Positions 3,279 to 17,074 of a DNA stretch of 56,053 bases are shown here, piece by piece (within the stretch, counting starts at the first letter, position 1; each line of letters opens with the position of its first letter). The DNA is taken from the NCBI GenBank assembly GCA_002897655.1, contig BDTJ01000035.1:1-56053 (forward strand), written 5' to 3'. The notes under the pieces were generated by a model. The model saw nothing but the letters and a program-made list of their open reading frames with translations. It was not told the DNA's origin and searched no databases. Made by a program: the position numbers and the translations under genes. The stretch comes from an archaeon BMS3Abin17. GTDB taxonomy: Archaea; Nanobdellota; Nanobdellia; Pacearchaeales; GW2011-AR1.

Positions 3279-3299
3279 CGCCCCCACTGAGCTTCGAAC
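3279..3299 (-). other. Orphan tRNA 3'-end fragment
   Basis: GTTCGAAG-CTCAG-TGGGGGC-G = T loop, 3' T stem, 3' acceptor strand, discriminator; no 5' half; abuts the eno stop codon. Confidence 0.6.
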
Positions 3300-4480
3300 T
3301 ACCTCAAACTCCTCTCGATTTCAATAAGCCTCTTTATCTTTGCCTCACGCTCTTTGCCTGTTATCCCACATTTAAAGAAATCTGCTCCAAAACCAAAGGC
3401 TAAATCAGCAAGGATTGTCTCTTCTGTTACCTCGCTTCTATGGGAAAAAACTATCTTTATATTGTTTTTTTTTGCTAATTCACAGACTCTTTTAACCTCA
3501 AGAAGAGAACCGCACTGGTTTGGTTTTACAATAATTGCATTTACACTCTTCATATCAATTGCTTTTTGAAGTCTTTTATGATTTGTTACAATTAAATCAT
3601 CTCCAACAATAAGTGAATTAGGATATTTTTTTAATAATTTAGAGTGTGATTCAAAATCCTCCTCACTAAAAGGGTCTTCAATATAAAAAAGATTAAAATT
3701 CTTAATCAAATTGCTTAAATAACCTAATTGCTCTTCACTATCTCTGTCCAGCTTGGGATTTTGATAATGATATTTTTTTCTCTTGTAAAATCCTGAAGAT
3801 GCTACATCTGTTCCTAAAGGGATTTTTACTCTCTTAAGTGTATCAAAAATTTCTTTTTCATTTAAAGTGGTCATCCATGCATCTTCATCATTCTTCTTAT
3901 TCTTGAAATTTTTATCTACTTCTTCAAGAAAATTTCCAACTTGTTTTTTTGTTTTTTTGTTTAATTCAAAGGCTTCTTTTACAGACTTTGAATTTGGAAT
4001 TAGTAAAAACTCTTGAAAATCAGGTTTTTTAAGAGCATCAGAGTGTTTTCCCCCTCCAATGCAGTTTCCAACTAATCTTGGAAATTTAGGCTTCTTTGAT
4101 TTAGCAAAGAAGTCATGAGAGGGATTAATCAATTGCCAGACCTGTTTTTTCTGTTCTTTTGCTATTGCTTTTAAAACAGCTGCTTCTAAAGCAAAGAGAG
4201 TATTTGCTCCTATTTGTCTATCCATTATATCTTCAATTCTTCTTAAATCATTAAAATCTTCTATTGATTCTTTAGAAAAATAACTGCTAAAATCTTTTAT
4301 TGCTTTAATATCCCCTTCTAAACTTTTTTTATAGATTTTTACAGCATATTTTCCTGTCGACTGTCCTTTTGGTGCACTTGCAGAAAACTTACCAACATTT
4401 GTCTTAATAGTAACTTGTATTGTCTTTTCTTTTCCAGAATCTAGAATCCATTTTGCCGAAACCTCTTTTATAACAACCAT
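3299..4480 (-). CDS. eno: Enolase (divergent)
   Basis: GGKH, FQEF, DVASS, IEDPF, VGDDL, KPNQ, SHRS motifs; lies next to rps2 as in many archaea. Confidence 0.92.
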   Translation of the reverse strand: MVVIKEVSAKWILDSGKEKTIQVTIKTNVGKFSASAPKGQSTGKYAVKIYKKSLEGDIKAIKDFSSYFSKESIEDFNDLRRIEDIMDRQIGANTLFALEAAVLKAIAKEQKKQVWQLINPSHDFFAKSKKPKFPRLVGNCIGGGKHSDALKKPDFQEFLLIPNSKSVKEAFELNKKTKKQVGNFLEEVDKNFKNKKNDEDAWMTTLNEKEIFDTLKRVKIPLGTDVASSGFYKRKKYHYQNPKLDRDSEEQLGYLSNLIKNFNLFYIEDPFSEEDFESHSKLLKKYPNSLIVGDDLIVTNHKRLQKAIDMKSVNAIIVKPNQCGSLLEVKRVCELAKKNNIKIVFSHRSEVTEETILADLAFGFGADFFKCGITGKEREAKIKRLIEIERSLR

Positions 4481-10649: not shown

Positions 10650-11053
10650 ATGAGTGTTGAGAAAATCCTTAAAGCGACTAATATACCCTTAACTAAAGAT
10701 GTAAATCTTGAAGAGGCTGGAAAACTTCTAAAATACCTAGCAAAAGAATTACCTGCAGATATAAATTACATTCAATCAGGTTATATTTATCTAACTCGAA
10801 GCCCTTTTAATTGCAATATTCTTCATGAAACAAAAGAGGGACATCAAAACTAACAGGAATGATAACTTGTTTTAGAAAACCAATTGCTTTTGATTCTTTT
10901 GAATTTACTCCCTCAAAAAAAGATTCCTCTAAACTTGCATCAATTCAGTTTAATATGGTGCCTGATTGGGAGTTAGATGAGTATAGGCCCGAAGTAAGAA
11001 AACTTTGGCGTAATGTAAGAGAAGTTGTAAAACAATATTTTAAAACTAAATAA
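10650..11053 (+). pseudogene. Hypothetical gene split by a frameshift near 10835-10841
   Basis: ORFs 10650-10853 and 10859-11053 would join by adding one nucleotide (...ETKE/GTSKLTGMITCFRK...). Confidence 0.5.
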
Positions 11054-11112: not shown

Positions 11113-12456
11113 ATGGAAATACATACTGTTGGCGGATTTAGTGAAGTTGGAAAGAACATGACTGTTGTTAAGACAGGTGATGATGCTATTGTGATTGATG
11201 CAGGAGTTCATCTGCCCGCAGTTATAGAGCTTCAGGAGGAAGAAGAACAATATGTGGCTCCAACTGAAAAAAGATTAAGAAGCGTAGGAGCATTGCCAGA
11301 TGATTTAATTCTTGATAAGCTTGGGTTAAGAGATAAAGTCAGAGCAATTTTGTTAGGGCATGCCCACCTTGACCATATTGGAGCTATCCCTTATATGGGA
11401 TACAGATACAAGGCACCTGTTGTAGGAACACCATTTACAATAGCAGTGCTAAAAAAAATAATGGAGGATAATCAGATAAAGATACCCAACAAAATACATT
11501 CTGTCAAACCAAATTCATCATTTACTATTAGGGGAAAAAAAAGAAATTATCAGGCAGAATTCATAAATATAACCCACTCAACTATTCAGACAGCAATGGT
11601 GGCTCTGCACACTCCAGAAGGAGTTGTTCTTTATTCAAGCGATTTTAAGTTTGATAACAATCCTATTGTCGGGCTTCCTCCAAATTACGACGCTCTTAAG
11701 AGAATAGCAAAAAAAGGAGTAAAGGCACTTATTGTAAACTCTCTTTATTCAGGAGATGAAAGAAAAACTCCAAGTGAGAAAATAGCAAGGGCACTTGTTG
11801 AGGAAGTTTTATTGACAGTCAATAATAAAAAATCAGCAATTTTTGTCTCTACTTTCTCTTCGCATATCGCAAGGTTGAAAAGTATAGTTGATTTTTCAAA
11901 AAAACTTAACAGAGAAGTGTATGTTATTGGAAGAAGTATGAATAAATATATTTCTGCTGCAAATGAAATAGGGATGTGCCCTTTTAGAAAAGATATCCAG
12001 ATTGGAAGCTATAAAAAACAAGTATTGTCAATTTTAAAAAAAGTAAGCAAAGACAGAGAAAATTCTTTGGTTGTTTGTACAGGGCATCAGGGAGAGCCAG
12101 GAAGTATTTTAGACAGATTAGCAAGAAACAAACTACCTTTTCAGTTCAAACCAAATGATAATATAATATTTTCCTCAAAAACAATACCTGTTCCGATAAG
12201 CATGGCAAATAAAGAGCAAATGGACAAGAGACTAAAAAAAACAGGAGCAAGATTATTTGATAATGTTCATGTTTCAGGGCATTGTGGAAGAGAAGATATA
12301 AGAGATTTATTGACTTTAATAAATCCAGAGAATATTATTCCATTTCATGGATCAATGCAGCAGTTAATTCCATTGGTTGAGCTTGCAAAAGAAATGGGCT
12401 TTAGAACAGGAAAAGAGTGCCATTTAATGCAGGACGGGCAGAGATTGAAGTTGTGA
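11113..12456 (+). CDS. rnj: Archaeal RNase J (beta-CASP)
   Basis: GGFSEVGKNMT, HAHLDHIG, SDFKFD, TGHQGEP, HVSGH. Confidence 0.94.
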   Translation: MEIHTVGGFSEVGKNMTVVKTGDDAIVIDAGVHLPAVIELQEEEEQYVAPTEKRLRSVGALPDDLILDKLGLRDKVRAILLGHAHLDHIGAIPYMGYRYKAPVVGTPFTIAVLKKIMEDNQIKIPNKIHSVKPNSSFTIRGKKRNYQAEFINITHSTIQTAMVALHTPEGVVLYSSDFKFDNNPIVGLPPNYDALKRIAKKGVKALIVNSLYSGDERKTPSEKIARALVEEVLLTVNNKKSAIFVSTFSSHIARLKSIVDFSKKLNREVYVIGRSMNKYISAANEIGMCPFRKDIQIGSYKKQVLSILKKVSKDRENSLVVCTGHQGEPGSILDRLARNKLPFQFKPNDNIIFSSKTIPVPISMANKEQMDKRLKKTGARLFDNVHVSGHCGREDIRDLLTLINPENIIPFHGSMQQLIPLVELAKEMGFRTGKECHLMQDGQRLKL

Positions 12457-12528
12457 AGTTTATATTTGTTTTATTAAATTTAAGTTTTAAATAAATACTT
12501 TTATAATTATTTATTTCTTTAAATAATC

Positions 12529-13014
12529 ATGTTAAGATACTTTAAGAATTTCAAGAAATATGCTTTTAGGTTGGAGCTTCTTCAAGAGTATAAGGTTGAT
12601 GGTGAAAAAAAGGATTTTGAGGATTTTTTAAAAACAGGGAAAATTAAAAAAGAGTATAATGACGAAGAGTATTTAATAATAAAGAATGCGAAAGATAGAA
12701 ATGCCAGTATGAGTAGAGTTCATGTGTTTGAATTGCCTTTAACAGATTATCTAAAGTTTGAATTTAAGATGTATAAATTTAATGAATTAGCAGGAGAAAA
12801 AATATTTTTATTGGATAAATTAGATTTTGAAAAGATAAATAGCAATATAAATTTTGATTTTTGGCTATTTGATGACAAAATAGTTTTAAAGATGAATTAT
12901 GATAAAGAAGGAAGATTTTTAGGTTTTGAGGAGATTAGAACAGATCTTAGAAAATTTATAGAATTAAAAGATAAATTACTTTCTATTTCTAAAGCTTTAA
13001 AATCAATATCTTAG
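12529..13014 (+). CDS. DUF6879-like protein
   Basis: FRLELLQEY, RVHV..PLTDYLKFE, AGEKI, DFWLFDD, YD.EGRFLG pattern. Confidence 0.7.
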   Translation: MLRYFKNFKKYAFRLELLQEYKVDGEKKDFEDFLKTGKIKKEYNDEEYLIIKNAKDRNASMSRVHVFELPLTDYLKFEFKMYKFNELAGEKIFLLDKLDFEKINSNINFDFWLFDDKIVLKMNYDKEGRFLGFEEIRTDLRKFIELKDKLLSISKALKSIS

Positions 13015-13060
13015 TTTGTATAATCATACATTTTTTAAATAAAACATTCTTTAAATCATC

Positions 13061-13633
13061 ATGGTTAGAGAAGATATTCTTGGAGGGTTAATTTCAGCAT
13101 TATTGAGAGGAGAGTCTCTTAGGCATGCTATGATTAGCATGCATAATGCAGGTTATGATAAAAAAGAAATAGAATGGGCTGCAAGAACTTTGCAGATGCA
13201 GGGTTATCAGCAGATTGAACAGCCAAAAAAACCCCTTAAAGTAAAAAAGCAAATTCCAAAGCCAATGCCTGGGAAAATAACAAAAATAGTCTCAGCATAT
13301 GCGGAAGAACCTTCAAAAGAGCAACTTTTAATTCCAGAAAGTATAAAAGTAGATTTTAGAACTGCGATAAAGGGTAAAGGAGTAATTAATAAAGAAAAAT
13401 CTAAGGGTGATAGAGCAATAGATCTTGGTCCTGATGTTAAAAATGCAGACACTGAAGCAGATTCAATTATGGAACCCCGTGCATCAAGATATGAGCCAGA
13501 AGCCCAAAGAAAACCGGGAAAATCAATAATTATTGTTTTGATAATGATTCTGGTTTCTTTACTTGGAATCTTAGCATTAGTATTCTTATTCAAAGAAGAC
13601 ATAATAATTTTCTTTAATAATTTATTTGGTTAA
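13061..13633 (+). CDS. Hypothetical protein with a C-terminal TM anchor
   Basis: Hydrophobic C-terminal helix. Confidence 0.7.
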   Translation: MVREDILGGLISALLRGESLRHAMISMHNAGYDKKEIEWAARTLQMQGYQQIEQPKKPLKVKKQIPKPMPGKITKIVSAYAEEPSKEQLLIPESIKVDFRTAIKGKGVINKEKSKGDRAIDLGPDVKNADTEADSIMEPRASRYEPEAQRKPGKSIIIVLIMILVSLLGILALVFLFKEDIIIFFNNLFG

Positions 13634-13634
13634 G

Positions 13635-14237
13635 ATGCTAGAAATCTATCCACCATCAGATGATTCTTATTTTTTATCAAATATTCTTAAAAAAGAAATT
13701 CCAAAACTGTTAAATAAAAATAAAAATCCAGGTGTTTTAGAGGTTGGGTGTGGTAGCGGGGTTCAATTATCAACACTAAAGGGACTTGAAGTTAAATCCT
13801 TGTTAGGGTTAGACATTAATCAAGCTGCAGTTAATCATTGCAGGGGGCTTGGTTTTAATTGTATCTTGTCTGATCTTTTTTCTAACATAAAGAAGAAATT
13901 TGATTTAATTATATTTAATCCCCCCTATCTTCCAGAAGACAAAGATGAGCCAAAAAGTTCAAGGTTGGCTACAACGGGGGGAAAGGAAGGAAGCAGGATA
14001 ATAAACAAATTCTTGAAACAGGCAAAAAAACATCTTAATGAAAATGGAAAAATAATTTTGCTCACGAGTAATTTGGCAAAAAAAATTTACTGGAAAGATT
14101 ACAAGAAGAAACTCCTTGGAAAAAAGAAACTTTTCTTTGAAGAACTTTATGTTTGGGAGTTGAATGCCCCAACCGATAGTAGTCTGGGAGTTTATTTGGG
14201 AAGGTTTTTAATCTCATATAAATTATTTAATACATGA
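13635..14237 (+). CDS. HemK2/MTQ2-family protein methyltransferase (C-terminus extended through a tRNA-like fragment)
   Basis: IYPPSDDSY, LEVGCGSG, FNPPYLP, GGKEG, LFFEEL. Confidence 0.9.
   Translation: MLEIYPPSDDSYFLSNILKKEIPKLLNKNKNPGVLEVGCGSGVQLSTLKGLEVKSLLGLDINQAAVNHCRGLGFNCILSDLFSNIKKKFDLIIFNPPYLPEDKDEPKSSRLATTGGKEGSRIINKFLKQAKKHLNENGKIILLTSNLAKKIYWKDYKKKLLGKKKLFFEELYVWELNAPTDSSLGVYLGRFLISYKLFNT
14165..14176 (-). other. Orphan tRNA 3'-end fragment / direct repeat with 14618-14629
   Basis: Minus strand TCGG-TTGGGGC-A; GCCCCAACCGA recurs at 14619. Confidence 0.45.
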
Positions 14238-14572
14238 ATTGGGTTATGATTATTTTAGTAGGAGCACAATTATTATTTACTACTAGCGATCTTCTCGCAA
14301 GGACATATATGCCTAAACATGGTTTTGCATTAGCTACTTTTTTAAGCGCATGGTTTTTTGCATATTTCTTAATCAGAATAATCGCTATGTTTGGTCAGCT
14401 TTATGTATTCACCACAATTGAGTTGGGAAAAACTATGGCTTTATTTGGAGCAGTTTCAATTATTCTCGCAAATGTTTTAGGATTGCTTGTACTTAAAGAA
14501 GTTCTCTCCCCTTGGGCTTATGTTGGAGTTTCATTAGCAGTAATCGCATTTCTCATATTGGCATTAACTTAA
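14234..14572 (+). CDS. SMR/EamA-like 4-TM small membrane protein
   Basis: Four hydrophobic helices; G.LVLKE.LS...YVG motif. Confidence 0.75.
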   Translation: MNWVMIILVGAQLLFTTSDLLARTYMPKHGFALATFLSAWFFAYFLIRIIAMFGQLYVFTTIELGKTMALFGAVSIILANVLGLLVLKEVLSPWAYVGVSLAVIAFLILALT

Positions 14573-14598
14573 TTATTTTTTAATAGTTTTCAATGCGA

Positions 14599-14631
14599 CG
14601 CCCTAGCAGGGAGTCAACGCCCCAACCGAGA
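14599..14631 (-). other. Two fused tRNA 3'-end fragments
   Basis: Minus strand CTCGG-TTGGGGC-G followed by GACT-CCCTG-CTAGGGC-G. Confidence 0.6.
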
Positions 14632-14748
14632 AGCAGACAAAAATGTCCAGATTAACGGAATTTCTTTTTATTTGGACCTTGGTTTAATACTATATTTGTC
14701 AAAGACCTCTTTTATTTATAAGAATTGTCGAGATGGAAAGGATATAAT

Positions 14749-15288
14749 TTATTTCTTTAAACACTTTTTCAAATCCTCTTTTTTTAAGATTAAATATCTA
14801 AATTTTCCTTGCCTTAATTCATTTGAAAATCCATACTTTGGAGAGCAAACAATAGCCTCATACTTAGCATCTTTAATAATTTGCATCGCAGGTATAAAAT
14901 CAGCATCTCCTGAAAGAAGTATACAAACATCACATGTTTTTTCCACTAATACCTTTCTTATCATATCGGAAGCAATCATCACATCAATTCCCTTTTCTAT
15001 ATTAATCTTTAATTTCTTTATCTTTTTAAGTTTCCTCGTTTTAACAATTATTCCTTCTTTTTTGAGTTTATCTAAGAATTCTATATGTTTATAATAAACA
15101 TCTTTATTATCAGAAATATTTGGAACCGCATTATAGTATCTTACTTCATTAAGATTTAACCCAAATTTTTTACATATAAATTCCCCTAAACACTTAAAAT
15201 CGATATTTGAGACATGATCAATAATTGTTTTAGAATTGTGGTAAAAGTTACTCCCATCAATAAATAGAATTGCTTTTCTCTTAATCAT
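14749..15288 (-). CDS. NYN-domain (LabA/PIN-like) ribonuclease
   Basis: FIDGSNFY, EKGIDV..ASD, LLSGDADFIP. Confidence 0.92.
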   Translation of the reverse strand: MIKRKAILFIDGSNFYHNSKTIIDHVSNIDFKCLGEFICKKFGLNLNEVRYYNAVPNISDNKDVYYKHIEFLDKLKKEGIIVKTRKLKKIKKLKINIEKGIDVMIASDMIRKVLVEKTCDVCILLSGDADFIPAMQIIKDAKYEAIVCSPKYGFSNELRQGKFRYLILKKEDLKKCLKK

Positions 15289-15301
15289 TTAATAAAGTAA
15301 G

Positions 15302-15328
15302 CCCGGCATTGTCAAAGACCATACCGGG
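15302..15328 (-). promoter_or_regulatory. GC-rich hairpin in the NYN 5' UTR
   Basis: CCCGGTAT-g-GTC-ttt-GAC-a-ATGCCGGG. Confidence 0.6.
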
Positions 15329-15393
15329 GATTTAATAAGTATAATAATGGATTATTATATATAAACTCTTCGGTTGTGCAAGATAGTAAAATG

Positions 15394-15417
15394 TGATCCT
15401 GATGGGATTTTTTAACC
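15394..15417 (-). other. Degenerate tRNA 3'-end fragment
   Basis: GGTTaaaAAAT-CCCAT-CAGGATC-A. Confidence 0.5.
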
Positions 15418-15456
15418 TTGTTTTTATTTATTATATTGGATAAAAGCTGATTTAAT

Positions 15457-15648
15457 TTATAAGAATTGTCGAGATGGAATGGATACTATTCTTTGACCAG
15501 GATTATTTTTACAATCATCGCATGAATTGTTGCTATAAGAATAGAGATCATTTTTATTACATATATAATCTCCACTCTCTTGATGTAATAATATTTTAAT
15601 TGTTTCATCTAAAACGCAAGTATCTCTTATTGGTTTTTCTTTAGCCAT
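15457..15648 (-). CDS. Small Cys-rich hypothetical protein
   Basis: 63 aa, 4 Cys, TATA box upstream. Confidence 0.55.
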   Translation of the reverse strand: MAKEKPIRDTCVLDETIKILLHQESGDYICNKNDLYSYSNNSCDDCKNNPGQRIVSIPSRQFL

Positions 15649-15694
15649 CTTATCTTAAATAGGAGGATAATTTATATATCTTTTTAAAAATAAG

Positions 15695-15711
15695 CACCCC
15701 AACCAGGAGTT
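15695..15711 (-). other. tRNA 3'-end fragment directly after the thrC stop
   Basis: AACT-CCTGG-TTGGGGT-G. Confidence 0.5.
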
Positions 15712-15712
15712 A

Positions 15713-17074
15713 TTATCCTGAAACCGCTTTTGTGATTTCATCAAGGTCATTCTCTACCTGAACAGGAGTATTTGCAAATTTGTGCCTTTTGTCTTTATGG
15801 TAATCTATTGTAGCAACAGGATCTTTTAACTGATTTCCTGTTAAAATTCCAACTACAACCTCGCTTTTTTTTATTATACCTTCTTTTACAAGGTTCTTTA
15901 TACCTGCTATTGTAGTTGCGCTTGCAGGCTCACAACCAAAACCATTTCTTCCAACTATTGCTTTTGCATCAAGAGTCTCATCATCTGTTACTGTCCGGAC
16001 AACTCCTTTACTTAGTTCTATTGTTCTTAAGGCCTTTAAGAGATTAACAGGGCGATTTATCTCAATTGCAGAGCAGATTGTTTTTGCTTTTCTGTCTTCT
16101 TTATCCATTGTGCCGTAAAATTTTTCTATCTTCTCAAAATCAACTTCTCCATTATTCCATATTATTTTTTCTTCATTAACAATTCTGTGCAGGGTGTCTG
16201 CACCTTTGGAGTTTATTATAGCAATCCTTGGTATTTTCTCTATTAATCCCATTTTTTTAAGTTCGTAGAATGCTTTTCCAAATGCAGAAGTATTCCCAAG
16301 ATTACCTCCTGGAAGCACAACCCAATCAGGGGTATTCCATCCAAGGCCTTCCAGTAATCTATACATGATTGTTTTTTGCCCTTCTAATCTAAACGGGTTT
16401 ACAGAATTCATAAGATATATATTCTCTTTTTTAGAGATTTCAAGAACTTTTTTCATGGCATCATCAAAATCACCTTTAATCTGGATAACTTTTGCCCCAT
16501 ATTCAAGGCTTTGTGCAAGTTTACCAATCGCTATCTTATCACTTCCTACAAAAACAAGAGCCCCCATAGCACCTAATTCATTTGCAGCAAAAGCAGCCAT
16601 TGATGCAGCAGTATTCCCTGTAGAAGCGCAAACAACTTTTGTTTTACCAAGCATTTTTGCGTGTGTAAAACAAGCCGCCATTCCATTGTCTTTAAATGAG
16701 CCAGTAGGATTATCTCCTTCAAACTGCAGGTAGAATCTTTCCTTATTTAACCCAACATATTTTGCAACTTCTGTGAGCTTAAATGGGGAGGTCTGCCCCT
16801 CTTTTCCATCAAGAGAAACAAGCACTTGCTCATAATTTCCATCACCTAATGGAAAAGGAAGCAATTCTCTAAACCTCCAGACCCCACTTTTATCAAATAT
16901 GCTTTGAGGAGTGGCTTTTCTTCTCTTGAACAATTCTAAAAAAGAATGAGGAATCCCTTTTCCAGAATAGATAACATCAAGAAGATTGCCACATTTTGGG
17001 CATTTTGTCATTTCAGTATTTATATCTCCTTCAAAATCACAAGTAGGAATTATACATTTAAGTGATGTTTTCAT
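15713..17074 (-). CDS. thrC: Threonine synthase (PLP fold II)
   Basis: NPTGSFKD, CASTGNT, NSVNPFRLEGQKT, PGGNLGN, CEPASA. Confidence 0.93.
   Translation of the reverse strand: MKTSLKCIIPTCDFEGDINTEMTKCPKCGNLLDVIYSGKGIPHSFLELFKRRKATPQSIFDKSGVWRFRELLPFPLGDGNYEQVLVSLDGKEGQTSPFKLTEVAKYVGLNKERFYLQFEGDNPTGSFKDNGMAACFTHAKMLGKTKVVCASTGNTAASMAAFAANELGAMGALVFVGSDKIAIGKLAQSLEYGAKVIQIKGDFDDAMKKVLEISKKENIYLMNSVNPFRLEGQKTIMYRLLEGLGWNTPDWVVLPGGNLGNTSAFGKAFYELKKMGLIEKIPRIAIINSKGADTLHRIVNEEKIIWNNGEVDFEKIEKFYGTMDKEDRKAKTICSAIEINRPVNLLKALRTIELSKGVVRTVTDDETLDAKAIVGRNGFGCEPASATTIAGIKNLVKEGIIKKSEVVVGILTGNQLKDPVATIDYHKDKRHKFANTPVQVENDLDEITKAVSG

Follow-up and report, generated by a model that had tools for sequence, protein, structure and literature searches.

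What might explain why the interval between a HemK-like methyltransferase gene and a threonine-synthase-like (ThrC-like) gene in an archaeal genome is dotted with short snippets that resemble the 3' ends of tRNA genes? The interval occupies 14.16-15.71 kb of the stretch of DNA analyzed here (the window), which is the 56,053-nt contig C35 of the archaeon BMS3Abin17, from a genome assembly of 1.09 Mb in 44 contigs with 32% GC and 92% completeness. A sequence-only reading of the window had listed five such snippets and ascribed them either to a hotspot of gene-cassette accretion at tRNA-derived attachment (att) sites or to the remains of a tRNA cluster; its observation is partly confirmed and its interpretation partly supported. 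We consider it likely, with a probability of roughly 0.75, that three remnants, decayed and without an integrase, lie in tandem in the interval, all derived from a single family of integrative elements that inserts at the 3' ends of tRNA-Asp and tRNA-Glu genes. The snippet cluster is then explained without recourse to anything exotic.

Four of the five snippets, taken in minus-strand orientation and compared with the tRNA-Asp 3' end, TTCGACTCCCGGTTGGGGCG, copy the last 10-22 bases of the genome's own tRNA-Asp(GUC). Matching of the fragments to tRNAs genome-wide, a check that the sequence-only reading had suggested, leads to the resident tRNA-Asp(GTC) gene at C18:17997-18068. The 10-mer CGGTTGGGGC occurs three times in the genome, once in this tRNA gene and at window positions 14166 and 14619. 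The octamer CCCCAACC is found three times in the 56 kb, always on the plus strand and within 1.54 kb (14167, 14620 and 15697); the chance expectation is 0.59, and two of 100 shuffles give three copies. Core copy 1 (TCGGTTGGGGC, 14166-14176, minus strand) matches the tRNA-Asp 3' end at 10/11 positions over 14166-14175 and stands alone, with no recognizable arm, the arm being the conserved repeat of the element family described below. Core copy 3 (CGGTTGGGGCG, 14618-14628, minus strand) matches at 11/11 positions. Core copy 4 (AACTCCTGGTTGGGGTGC, 15694-15711, minus strand), which includes part of the T-loop and is read as ACTCCTGGTTGGGGTG, matches at ~14/16 positions and sits directly after the double stop codon of the ThrC-like gene. 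The remaining piece (TTGACTCCCTGCTAGGGCG, 14598-14617, minus strand), at ~16/20 positions with one gap, is either a degenerate Asp-like 3' end or a remnant of an integrase-side arm; its 12-mer CTGCTAGGGCGT also occurs in locus L054, ~100 nt downstream of a tRNA-Glu core. The alignments of 15694-15711 and 14598-14617 to tRNA-Asp were made by eye. As had been noticed, no 5' halves accompany the snippets. The fifth snippet, at 15394, is not tRNA-derived: it is a hairpin with a T-run inside the arm repeat, and of the three acceptor types that had been proposed two are tRNA-like and the third is this hairpin. In BLAST, the repeat around it is 94% identical to C18:13817-13915 (100 nt) and 87% identical to C31:60474-60562 (93 nt).

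The arm is a conserved repeat of ~125 nt with two hairpins that ends in a 35-nt signature motif, TTTATAARWATTGTCGAGATGGA. On the plus strand of the window a full unit comprises a GC box, (A/T)CGCCCCnnCCG, a spacer of ~12 nt, a hairpin with a T-run, an AT-rich hairpin and the motif GATTTATAARWATTGTCGAGATGGARWGKAT. The family was assembled by extending BLAST matches, followed by a profile search with the conserved end, which recovered nine strong copies in the genome (window 14709 and 15450; C18 13886 and 14457; C33 46838 and 47410; C31 60450; C9 2521; C42 10498) and two weak ones (C33 46276; C31 61214). Their neighbors encode an NYN-domain nuclease, a ParE/MazE pair, a pentapeptide-repeat protein, VapBC, a Fic protein and fragments of IS200 tnpA. 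Beyond this genome, 33 genome records and 63 metagenome contigs contain the arm, most of them labeled Woese-, Pace- or Nanoarchaeota, and an exact-pattern scan of species-representative genomes returned 51 loci, 35 of them archaeal by record title and mostly from the same three groups. Two of the 35, L021 and L058, and the 16 bacterial loci look like chance matches, because none shares flanking similarity. Searched with the 124-nt arm, the DNA of 40 relatives gave one convincing match (G032, 86% over 44 nt), all others being short and AT-rich, and a lineage-specific arm pattern had no matches in the metagenome scan. Motif neighbors across the loci include GmrSD, nucleotidyltransferases, DUF2283, D12 methylase and reverse transcriptase, as well as housekeeping genes. 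Where the motif has a motif-side neighbor, 25 of 39 copies abut the 3' end of a convergent gene, 11 of these 25 within 11 nt of the stop codon. The motif contains tandem ATGGA units and a TATA-like core, GATTTATAAATC, that is palindromic; it is a putative arm-type integrase binding site, the palindrome might also point to a promoter, and a terminator is a further candidate. Two loci show unusual arrangements of these parts: in L052 (2340-2660) core-plus-arm units stand in tandem with no cargo between them, and L031 (2290-2400) has four ACGCCC-type boxes within 150 nt.

The core changes with the tRNA of the genome in which it resides. Among genomes holding motif loci, tRNA-Asp was found in 11 (it was not retrieved from G043, G045, G050 and G051), and in 8 of the 11 the last 11 nt of the resident tRNA-Asp, reverse-complemented, give exactly the core that stands next to the arm. 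Five variants of the core are represented: CGGTTGGGGCG in BMS3Abin17 and in G052, G053 and G054, CGGCTGGGGCG in G041, CGGCGTGGGCG in G044, CGGTCGGGGCG in G047, whose tRNA-Glu ends identically, and CGGTTAGGGCG in G048. The intron-containing tRNA of G054 is labeled Asn(GTT) by ARAGORN, but its BLAST match is to tRNA-Asp. A GCCCCNNCCG box, with at most one mismatch, lies 60-200 nt upstream of the motif in 20/44 copies, compared with 1/44 on the opposite strand and 3/46 in the downstream region, and 39 of 60 evaluable metagenome loci (63 came from the scan) have the box. In three far-end cores (C18:13806-13818, L063 and L160) a single base, A for G, sets the core apart from the 3' end of the resident tRNA; in C18 and in G042 that position belongs to a G-U pair of the acceptor stem in the tRNA, and the box has the Watson-Crick base.

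Core and arm are physically linked to an integrase gene in complete elements. Read in tRNA orientation, an intact element begins with a tRNA gene ending in a core of 11-13 nt, which is the tRNA's own last bases, and continues with a short arm bearing a TTGGCAY hairpin, a tyrosine integrase of ~386 aa, cargo genes, the ~125-nt arm (two hairpins and the reverse complement of TTTATAARWATTGTCGAGATGGA) and a second core. In G041 and G044 a real tRNA-Asp is directly followed by the hairpin arm, TAATACCTT(C/T)(T/A)TGGCA(C/T)..., and then by the integrase gene, whose 386-aa product in G041 matches PF00589 (E 6.4e-7, 29.7 bits, cut-off 27.1) and phrog_1 integrase (E 9.6e-14). At L033, which belongs to the genome of G044, motif arm, core, short arm and an 86-aa integrase stub are contiguous. 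Homologues of the integrase were found in 14 of 60 relatives searched, 12 of 36 within the same family, and in 7 of 12 of the relatives' loci the integrase is immediately preceded by a tRNA gene (Asp twice, Glu, Gln, Ser, Leu-like and Cys). The suggestion that the snippets represent att sites of tyrosine-integrase elements is thus borne out, both by covariation of core and tRNA and by the complete elements.

Elements of this family form a series of decreasing size, from ~4.7 kb with an integrase to 0.8 kb without. Eight metagenome loci show both ends in the predicted geometry, and in 6/8 an exact core repeat, 8 nt or longer, stands where it is predicted; the loci were chosen by the motif, which biases the sample to small elements. 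A full integrase is present in the 4.73-kb L182 at tRNA-Glu (12-nt core repeat). Integrase stubs occur in L181 (5.0 kb, tRNA-Asp, 9-nt repeat), in L171 (4.2 kb, tRNA-Leu, 8-nt repeat; 105-aa stub) and in L184 (2.38 kb, tRNA-Glu, 12-nt repeat; 79-aa stub). Integrase is lacking from L143 (1.69 kb, tRNA-Asp, 12-nt repeat), L160 (0.86 kb, tRNA-Glu, repeat with one mismatch), L158 (0.81 kb, tRNA-Asp, 13-nt repeat) and L170 (~0.5 kb, tRNA-Glu), in which no core repeat was found. In addition to these eight, L054 is an integrase-less element at tRNA-Glu (1.5 kb, 11-nt repeat). BMS3Abin17 itself has a 4.2-kb element at its tRNA-Asp gene (C18:13804-17996), with a 10/11 repeat and an rve-type insertion sequence in the place of the integrase. 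Sister elements retain integrase stubs of 79-105 aa, and the integrase-less units therefore appear to be decayed remnants of larger, integrase-bearing elements. The accretion hotspot that had been proposed for the window keeps its att-site basis, but the evidence gives no indication of a dedicated accretion machine.

How do these parts lie in the window? On the minus strand, and so in the orientation of the tRNA, the array begins at the stop of the ThrC-like gene with core 4, followed by the 63-aa open reading frame (ORF) with an arm lacking a proper core, then by the NYN gene, an arm, core 3, the CTGCTAGGGCG piece, the 112-aa gene on the opposite strand, core 1 and the end of the HemK-like gene. 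It would comprise three one-gene, integrase-less remnants, whose cargo is a membrane-protein gene, an NYN nuclease gene and the 63-aa ORF. Remnant 1 contains the Cys-rich 63-aa ORF (15457-15648, minus strand), the last codons of which lie within the motif; it has no Pfam or PHROG match and may not be a real gene. Its arm, copy b (15380-15491, minus strand; nhmmer E 1.8e-8), has the hairpin and T-run at ~15393-15413 and the motif at 15450-15491, with only an inverted core-like TCGGTTGTGC at 15370-15379 beside it. Remnant 2 contains the NYN-domain nuclease gene (14749-15288, minus strand; Pfam NYN PF01936, E 2.7e-18), whose stop codon abuts the motif of arm copy a (14629-14752, minus strand; nhmmer E 4.7e-9; motif 14709-14752). 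The interior of copy a has diverged, and its stretch 14710-14754 is 95.6% identical to C18:13887-13931. Remnant 3 carries the 112-aa membrane-protein ORF (14234-14572, plus strand), the SMR-like gene of the sequence-only reading, which had correctly placed it within a direct repeat: it lies between two exact 11-nt copies of the core repeat GCCCCAACCGA, at 14166-14176 and 14619-14629. It has a Pfam match only to UPF0060/YnfA, weak and below the cut-off (E 0.022), and no PHROG match. On either side stand the HemK/Mtq2-like methyltransferase gene (13626-14237, plus strand; Pfam MTS PF05175, E 1.6e-11) and the ThrC-like gene (15713-17074, minus strand; Pfam PALP, E 9.4e-49). A GC stem (CCCGG...CCGGG) at 15301-15352 encloses the 12-mer TTGTCAAAGACC, also present inside arm copy a at 14696, and is followed, just upstream of the NYN start, by a degenerate motif-like ATTTAATAAGTATAATAATGGA; this stretch may represent a third arm that has eroded, or else the promoter of the NYN gene.

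Comparison of the interval in relatives gives a view of the site without the array. The ThrC-like gene was found in one of 40 relatives searched, G015, where it is 77% identical and syntenic. In this single syntenic relative the interval between the HemK-like and ThrC-like genes is ~540 bp, contains one unrelated minus-strand ORF, and lacks core box, motif and tRNA; the content between the repeats of the window is accessory by comparison, in keeping with the earlier suggestion that the snippets partition accessory genes. Both flanking genes in G015 have C-termini that are different, being longer or unrelated. The HemK-like orthologue ends ...EELYLYLLSIT*, the window protein continues past ...EELYVWEL by translating through core copy 1, and the C-terminus of the window ThrC-like protein is ~16 residues shorter than that of G015. 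The G015 interval, together with the differing C-termini, therefore indicates that a block was inserted or rearranged at the window site, clipping both gene ends. Core 1 itself is bounded by an 8-nt direct repeat, TGGGAGTT, at 14154-14161 and 14185-14192, which may be a footprint or chance; loss of 31 nt, made up of one copy and the sequence that separates the two, would give a HemK-like end ...ELYVWEFIWEGF* of a length near that of the G015 protein. Near the array, a DUF6879 gene (12529-13014) is absent from the otherwise syntenic G015 contig and is therefore a second small insertion.

The array could have arisen as follows. A tyrosine integrase would integrate the element by a crossover inside the 11-13-nt core, each integration would duplicate the core, and repeated integrations would stack elements in tandem. 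Internal deletions would then remove the integrase and most of the cargo, and one or two genes, a motif arm and a core would be left over. Arrival at a site that is not a tRNA gene may have come about by integration at a secondary site, or by rearrangement followed by a deletion that clipped both flanking genes. The array would now be immobile unless an integrase were supplied from elsewhere.

Several observations weigh against reading the array as element remnants. The array does not occupy a canonical attB, as ARAGORN detects no tRNA gene anywhere in the window. Two hallmarks of att scars, an integrase at the tRNA-side junction and an intact target tRNA, are absent from the window, although the integrase stands beside a tRNA in the sister elements of G041, G044 and L182. 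The window has no integrase, as had been stated, and tblastn (E<=1e-3) found no member of the 386-aa family in the 92%-complete, 44-contig assembly. Cores are inexact in 3 of the 11 genomes, with one mismatch in G046 and two in G049, while the core of G042 is one mismatch from that genome's own tRNA-Glu; some inexact cores may be Glu-type. The second locus in G041, L028, is also one mismatch off. Two loci are non-canonical: the integrase of L031 points towards the cores, and in L036 a whole tRNA-Thr stands beside the arm in the opposite orientation. Motif-only copies without the core and hairpin part (C18:14457, C33:46838 and C33:47410) bracket the same ParE/MazE pair at two loci, which simple decay does not predict. 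Finally, no joints at any core occur in contigs from four DNA runs, an absence that carries little weight, as contigs drop rare variants.

The assembly across the array is supported by contigs of other runs, which cover it without rearrangement: X3 spans 12096-15409, X5 14873-15524 and X4 15384-16675, all collinear. Other organisms are the probable source of two low-depth skips that fall inside the HemK-like and NYN genes. A second record of run X3 (depth 3), at window position 14195, has a diverged start of the 112-aa gene, preceded by ...ATGCCCCAACCGTGTACCAGGGGAGT; its core is identical to that of the window and its spacer is another, which makes it a strain variant or a second locus.

The genome has other tyrosine recombinase genes: three paralogues of 278 aa match PF00589 (C38:73485, C18:2492 and C31:23944), and a partial one lies at a contig end (C4:22821). 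The genome search with the 386-aa integrase matched none of these four. Archaea usually carry a single XerA.

Could the units instead belong to a cassette system that still works? Mini-elements of one or two genes that lack an integrase but have full att arms and a tRNA core would be shuffled by the 386-aa integrase of autonomous relatives, supplied in trans, with tRNA-Asp and tRNA-Glu genes and secondary sites as targets; the window would be an active accretion hotspot within a gene-shuffling platform resembling integrons or cis-mobilizable elements (CIMEs). Mini-elements of 0.8-1.7 kb (L158, L143 and L054) do retain both arms and exact core repeats, and the arms of the window, C18 and C31 are 87-94% identical around unrelated cargo, which suggests recent spread. 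The bracketing of one ParE/MazE pair by motifs at two loci and the cargo-free tandem units of L052 also agree with such a system, as does a cargo rich in toxin-antitoxin and defense genes, like that of integron cassettes (PMC9668308). We nevertheless think it unlikely. The integrase stubs of sister elements point to decay by deletion, the 386-aa family was not found in the organism's own assembly, the contigs of the four runs contain no excision joints, and motif-based choice of loci favors small elements in the sample. The window cores are degenerate (10/11 and ~14/16) and one arm has no core, so excision of the window copies is doubtful. If mini-elements do prove to be mobilizable in trans, interest in them rises considerably: small-genome DPANN archaea would have an integron-like exchange of toxin-antitoxin and defense genes through a tRNA-derived site instead of attC, and the 35-nt motif would be an arm-type integrase site that could on its own also act as a cassette boundary.

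Decidedly less probable is a core-plus-arm unit that moves in its own right, as a small repeat akin to a miniature inverted-repeat transposable element, or that is a structured RNA gene, with only a secondary link to integrative elements. Dispersed copies at non-tRNA sites (C9, C31, C33 and C42), the tandem units in L052 and a hairpin with T-run conserved on the plus strand would suit such a unit, and the plus strand folds more strongly than the minus strand in 7/7 arm copies folded. In the region and 16 related loci, however, Rfam matches nothing but real tRNAs, neither terminal inverted repeats nor target duplications were observed, IS200 ends on its right side short of the motif, and the unit occurs exactly at the far end of integrase-bearing elements, with its core repeated at the tRNA. 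That a tRNA gene cluster once stood between the HemK-like and ThrC-like genes and has eroded, the other explanation first offered, deserves hardly any credence: core 4 and the 14598 piece do hold T-loop-like bases beyond the core, and there may once have been a tRNA-Asp downstream of the ThrC-like gene, but all pieces are the same Asp-type 3' end without 5' halves, two of them lie directly beside element arms, and G015, the only syntenic relative among the 40 searched, has neither tRNA, core nor motif in the interval.

Other candidates were rejected. Integron attC sites were set aside on inspection and single-sequence folds, which revealed no RYYYAAC...GTTRRRY ends and no pairing of unit ends. 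An Xer/dif or pdif module was abandoned after the integrase was found; the motif contains the palindromic GATTTATAAATC but no 11-6-11 dyad. The ends of IS200/IS605 elements and palindrome-associated (PATE-type) miniatures are likewise hairpin-rich, gene-less dispersed repeats of ~120 nt, and IS200 tnpA adjoins two arm copies (C42 and L057). In C42, however, ~30 nt remain between the right end of IS200 and the motif, and the C44 copy has no motif; the unit is therefore not an IS200 end. No serine recombinase (PF00239) was found in the genome. A different hairpin-rich miniature repeat (...ccgcaccttttaaggtgcgg...) occurs at C18:~16000-16130 and at C42:~10830-10910, where it interrupts IS200 tnpA.

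An array of element remnants at tRNA-derived att sites is of a kind already known in archaea, where integrative elements at the tRNA genes of Sulfolobus and Thermococcales have left captured genes behind after integrase loss (She et al. 2001-2004, as cited in PMC8371274). What is newly delineated is the element family. As in those elements, there is a tyrosine integrase and the direct repeats are the tRNA 3' end; tandem integration, and loss of the integrase or mutation of att that traps cargo in the chromosome, would be further shared features. Secondary att sites are discussed in that review. Unlike in SSV-type (Sulfolobus spindle-shaped virus) elements, the att site is outside the integrase gene, and integration therefore does not split the gene. 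The present elements also differ from those of Sulfolobus and Thermococcales in that their hosts are Woese-, Pace- and Nanoarchaeota, their remnants go down to a single gene, and the window array is not beside a tRNA. The accessible text of PMC8371274 contains neither 'DPANN' nor 'Nanoarchae', and the literature searched gave no specific description of such elements in DPANN archaea.

The layout is also reminiscent of CIMEs, which are integrase-less, att-flanked stretches of DNA that match the att sites of autonomous relatives and accrete in tandem with integrative and conjugative or integrative and mobilizable elements at bacterial tRNA and ssrA sites. The units described here have the same integrase-less, att-flanked, tandem-stacked layout. 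CIMEs are bacterial and linked to conjugation, and their mobilization in trans has been demonstrated; that of the archaeal units is hypothetical. Archaeal integrons and clusters of attC sites lacking an integrase (CALINs), which according to Ghaly et al. 2022 (PMC9668308) carry small toxin-antitoxin and defense cassettes, mostly without a local integrase, and occur in Nanoarchaeota too, resemble the present loci in gene content and in their arrays of small cassettes that mostly lack a local integrase. They differ in that the present core duplicates a tRNA 3' end, with the integrase next to the tRNA, and in the attC ends, which inspection did not reveal.

The integrative-element family of Woese-, Pace- and Nanoarchaeota is now defined by its integrase, both arms, the 35-nt motif and the tRNA-Asp/Glu core. 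The motif can serve as a practical marker for integrated elements and captured genes in fragmentary DPANN genomes, and the decay series illustrates the way in which genomes as tiny as these come to fix accessory genes such as toxin-antitoxin pairs, NYN and Fic.

Further orphan tRNA 3' ends occur elsewhere in the genome. A genome-wide search with the last 12 nt of 27 tRNAs, allowing at most one mismatch, gave 46 orphan hits, several of which have T-loop context near the matching tRNA (Val, Arg, Leu, Gln and Lys); examples are C34:3635, C20:6769, C32:24456, C33:17466, C31:91318 and C44:19486. Scars of att sites, left by several types of element, seem to fill the genome. In the window, an orphan tRNA-Glu-like 3' end, GTTCGAAGCTCAGTGGGGGCG, lies at 3279-3300 on the minus strand, directly after the stop of a 393-aa gene (3299-4480, minus strand), in the same position that core 4 has relative to the ThrC-like gene.

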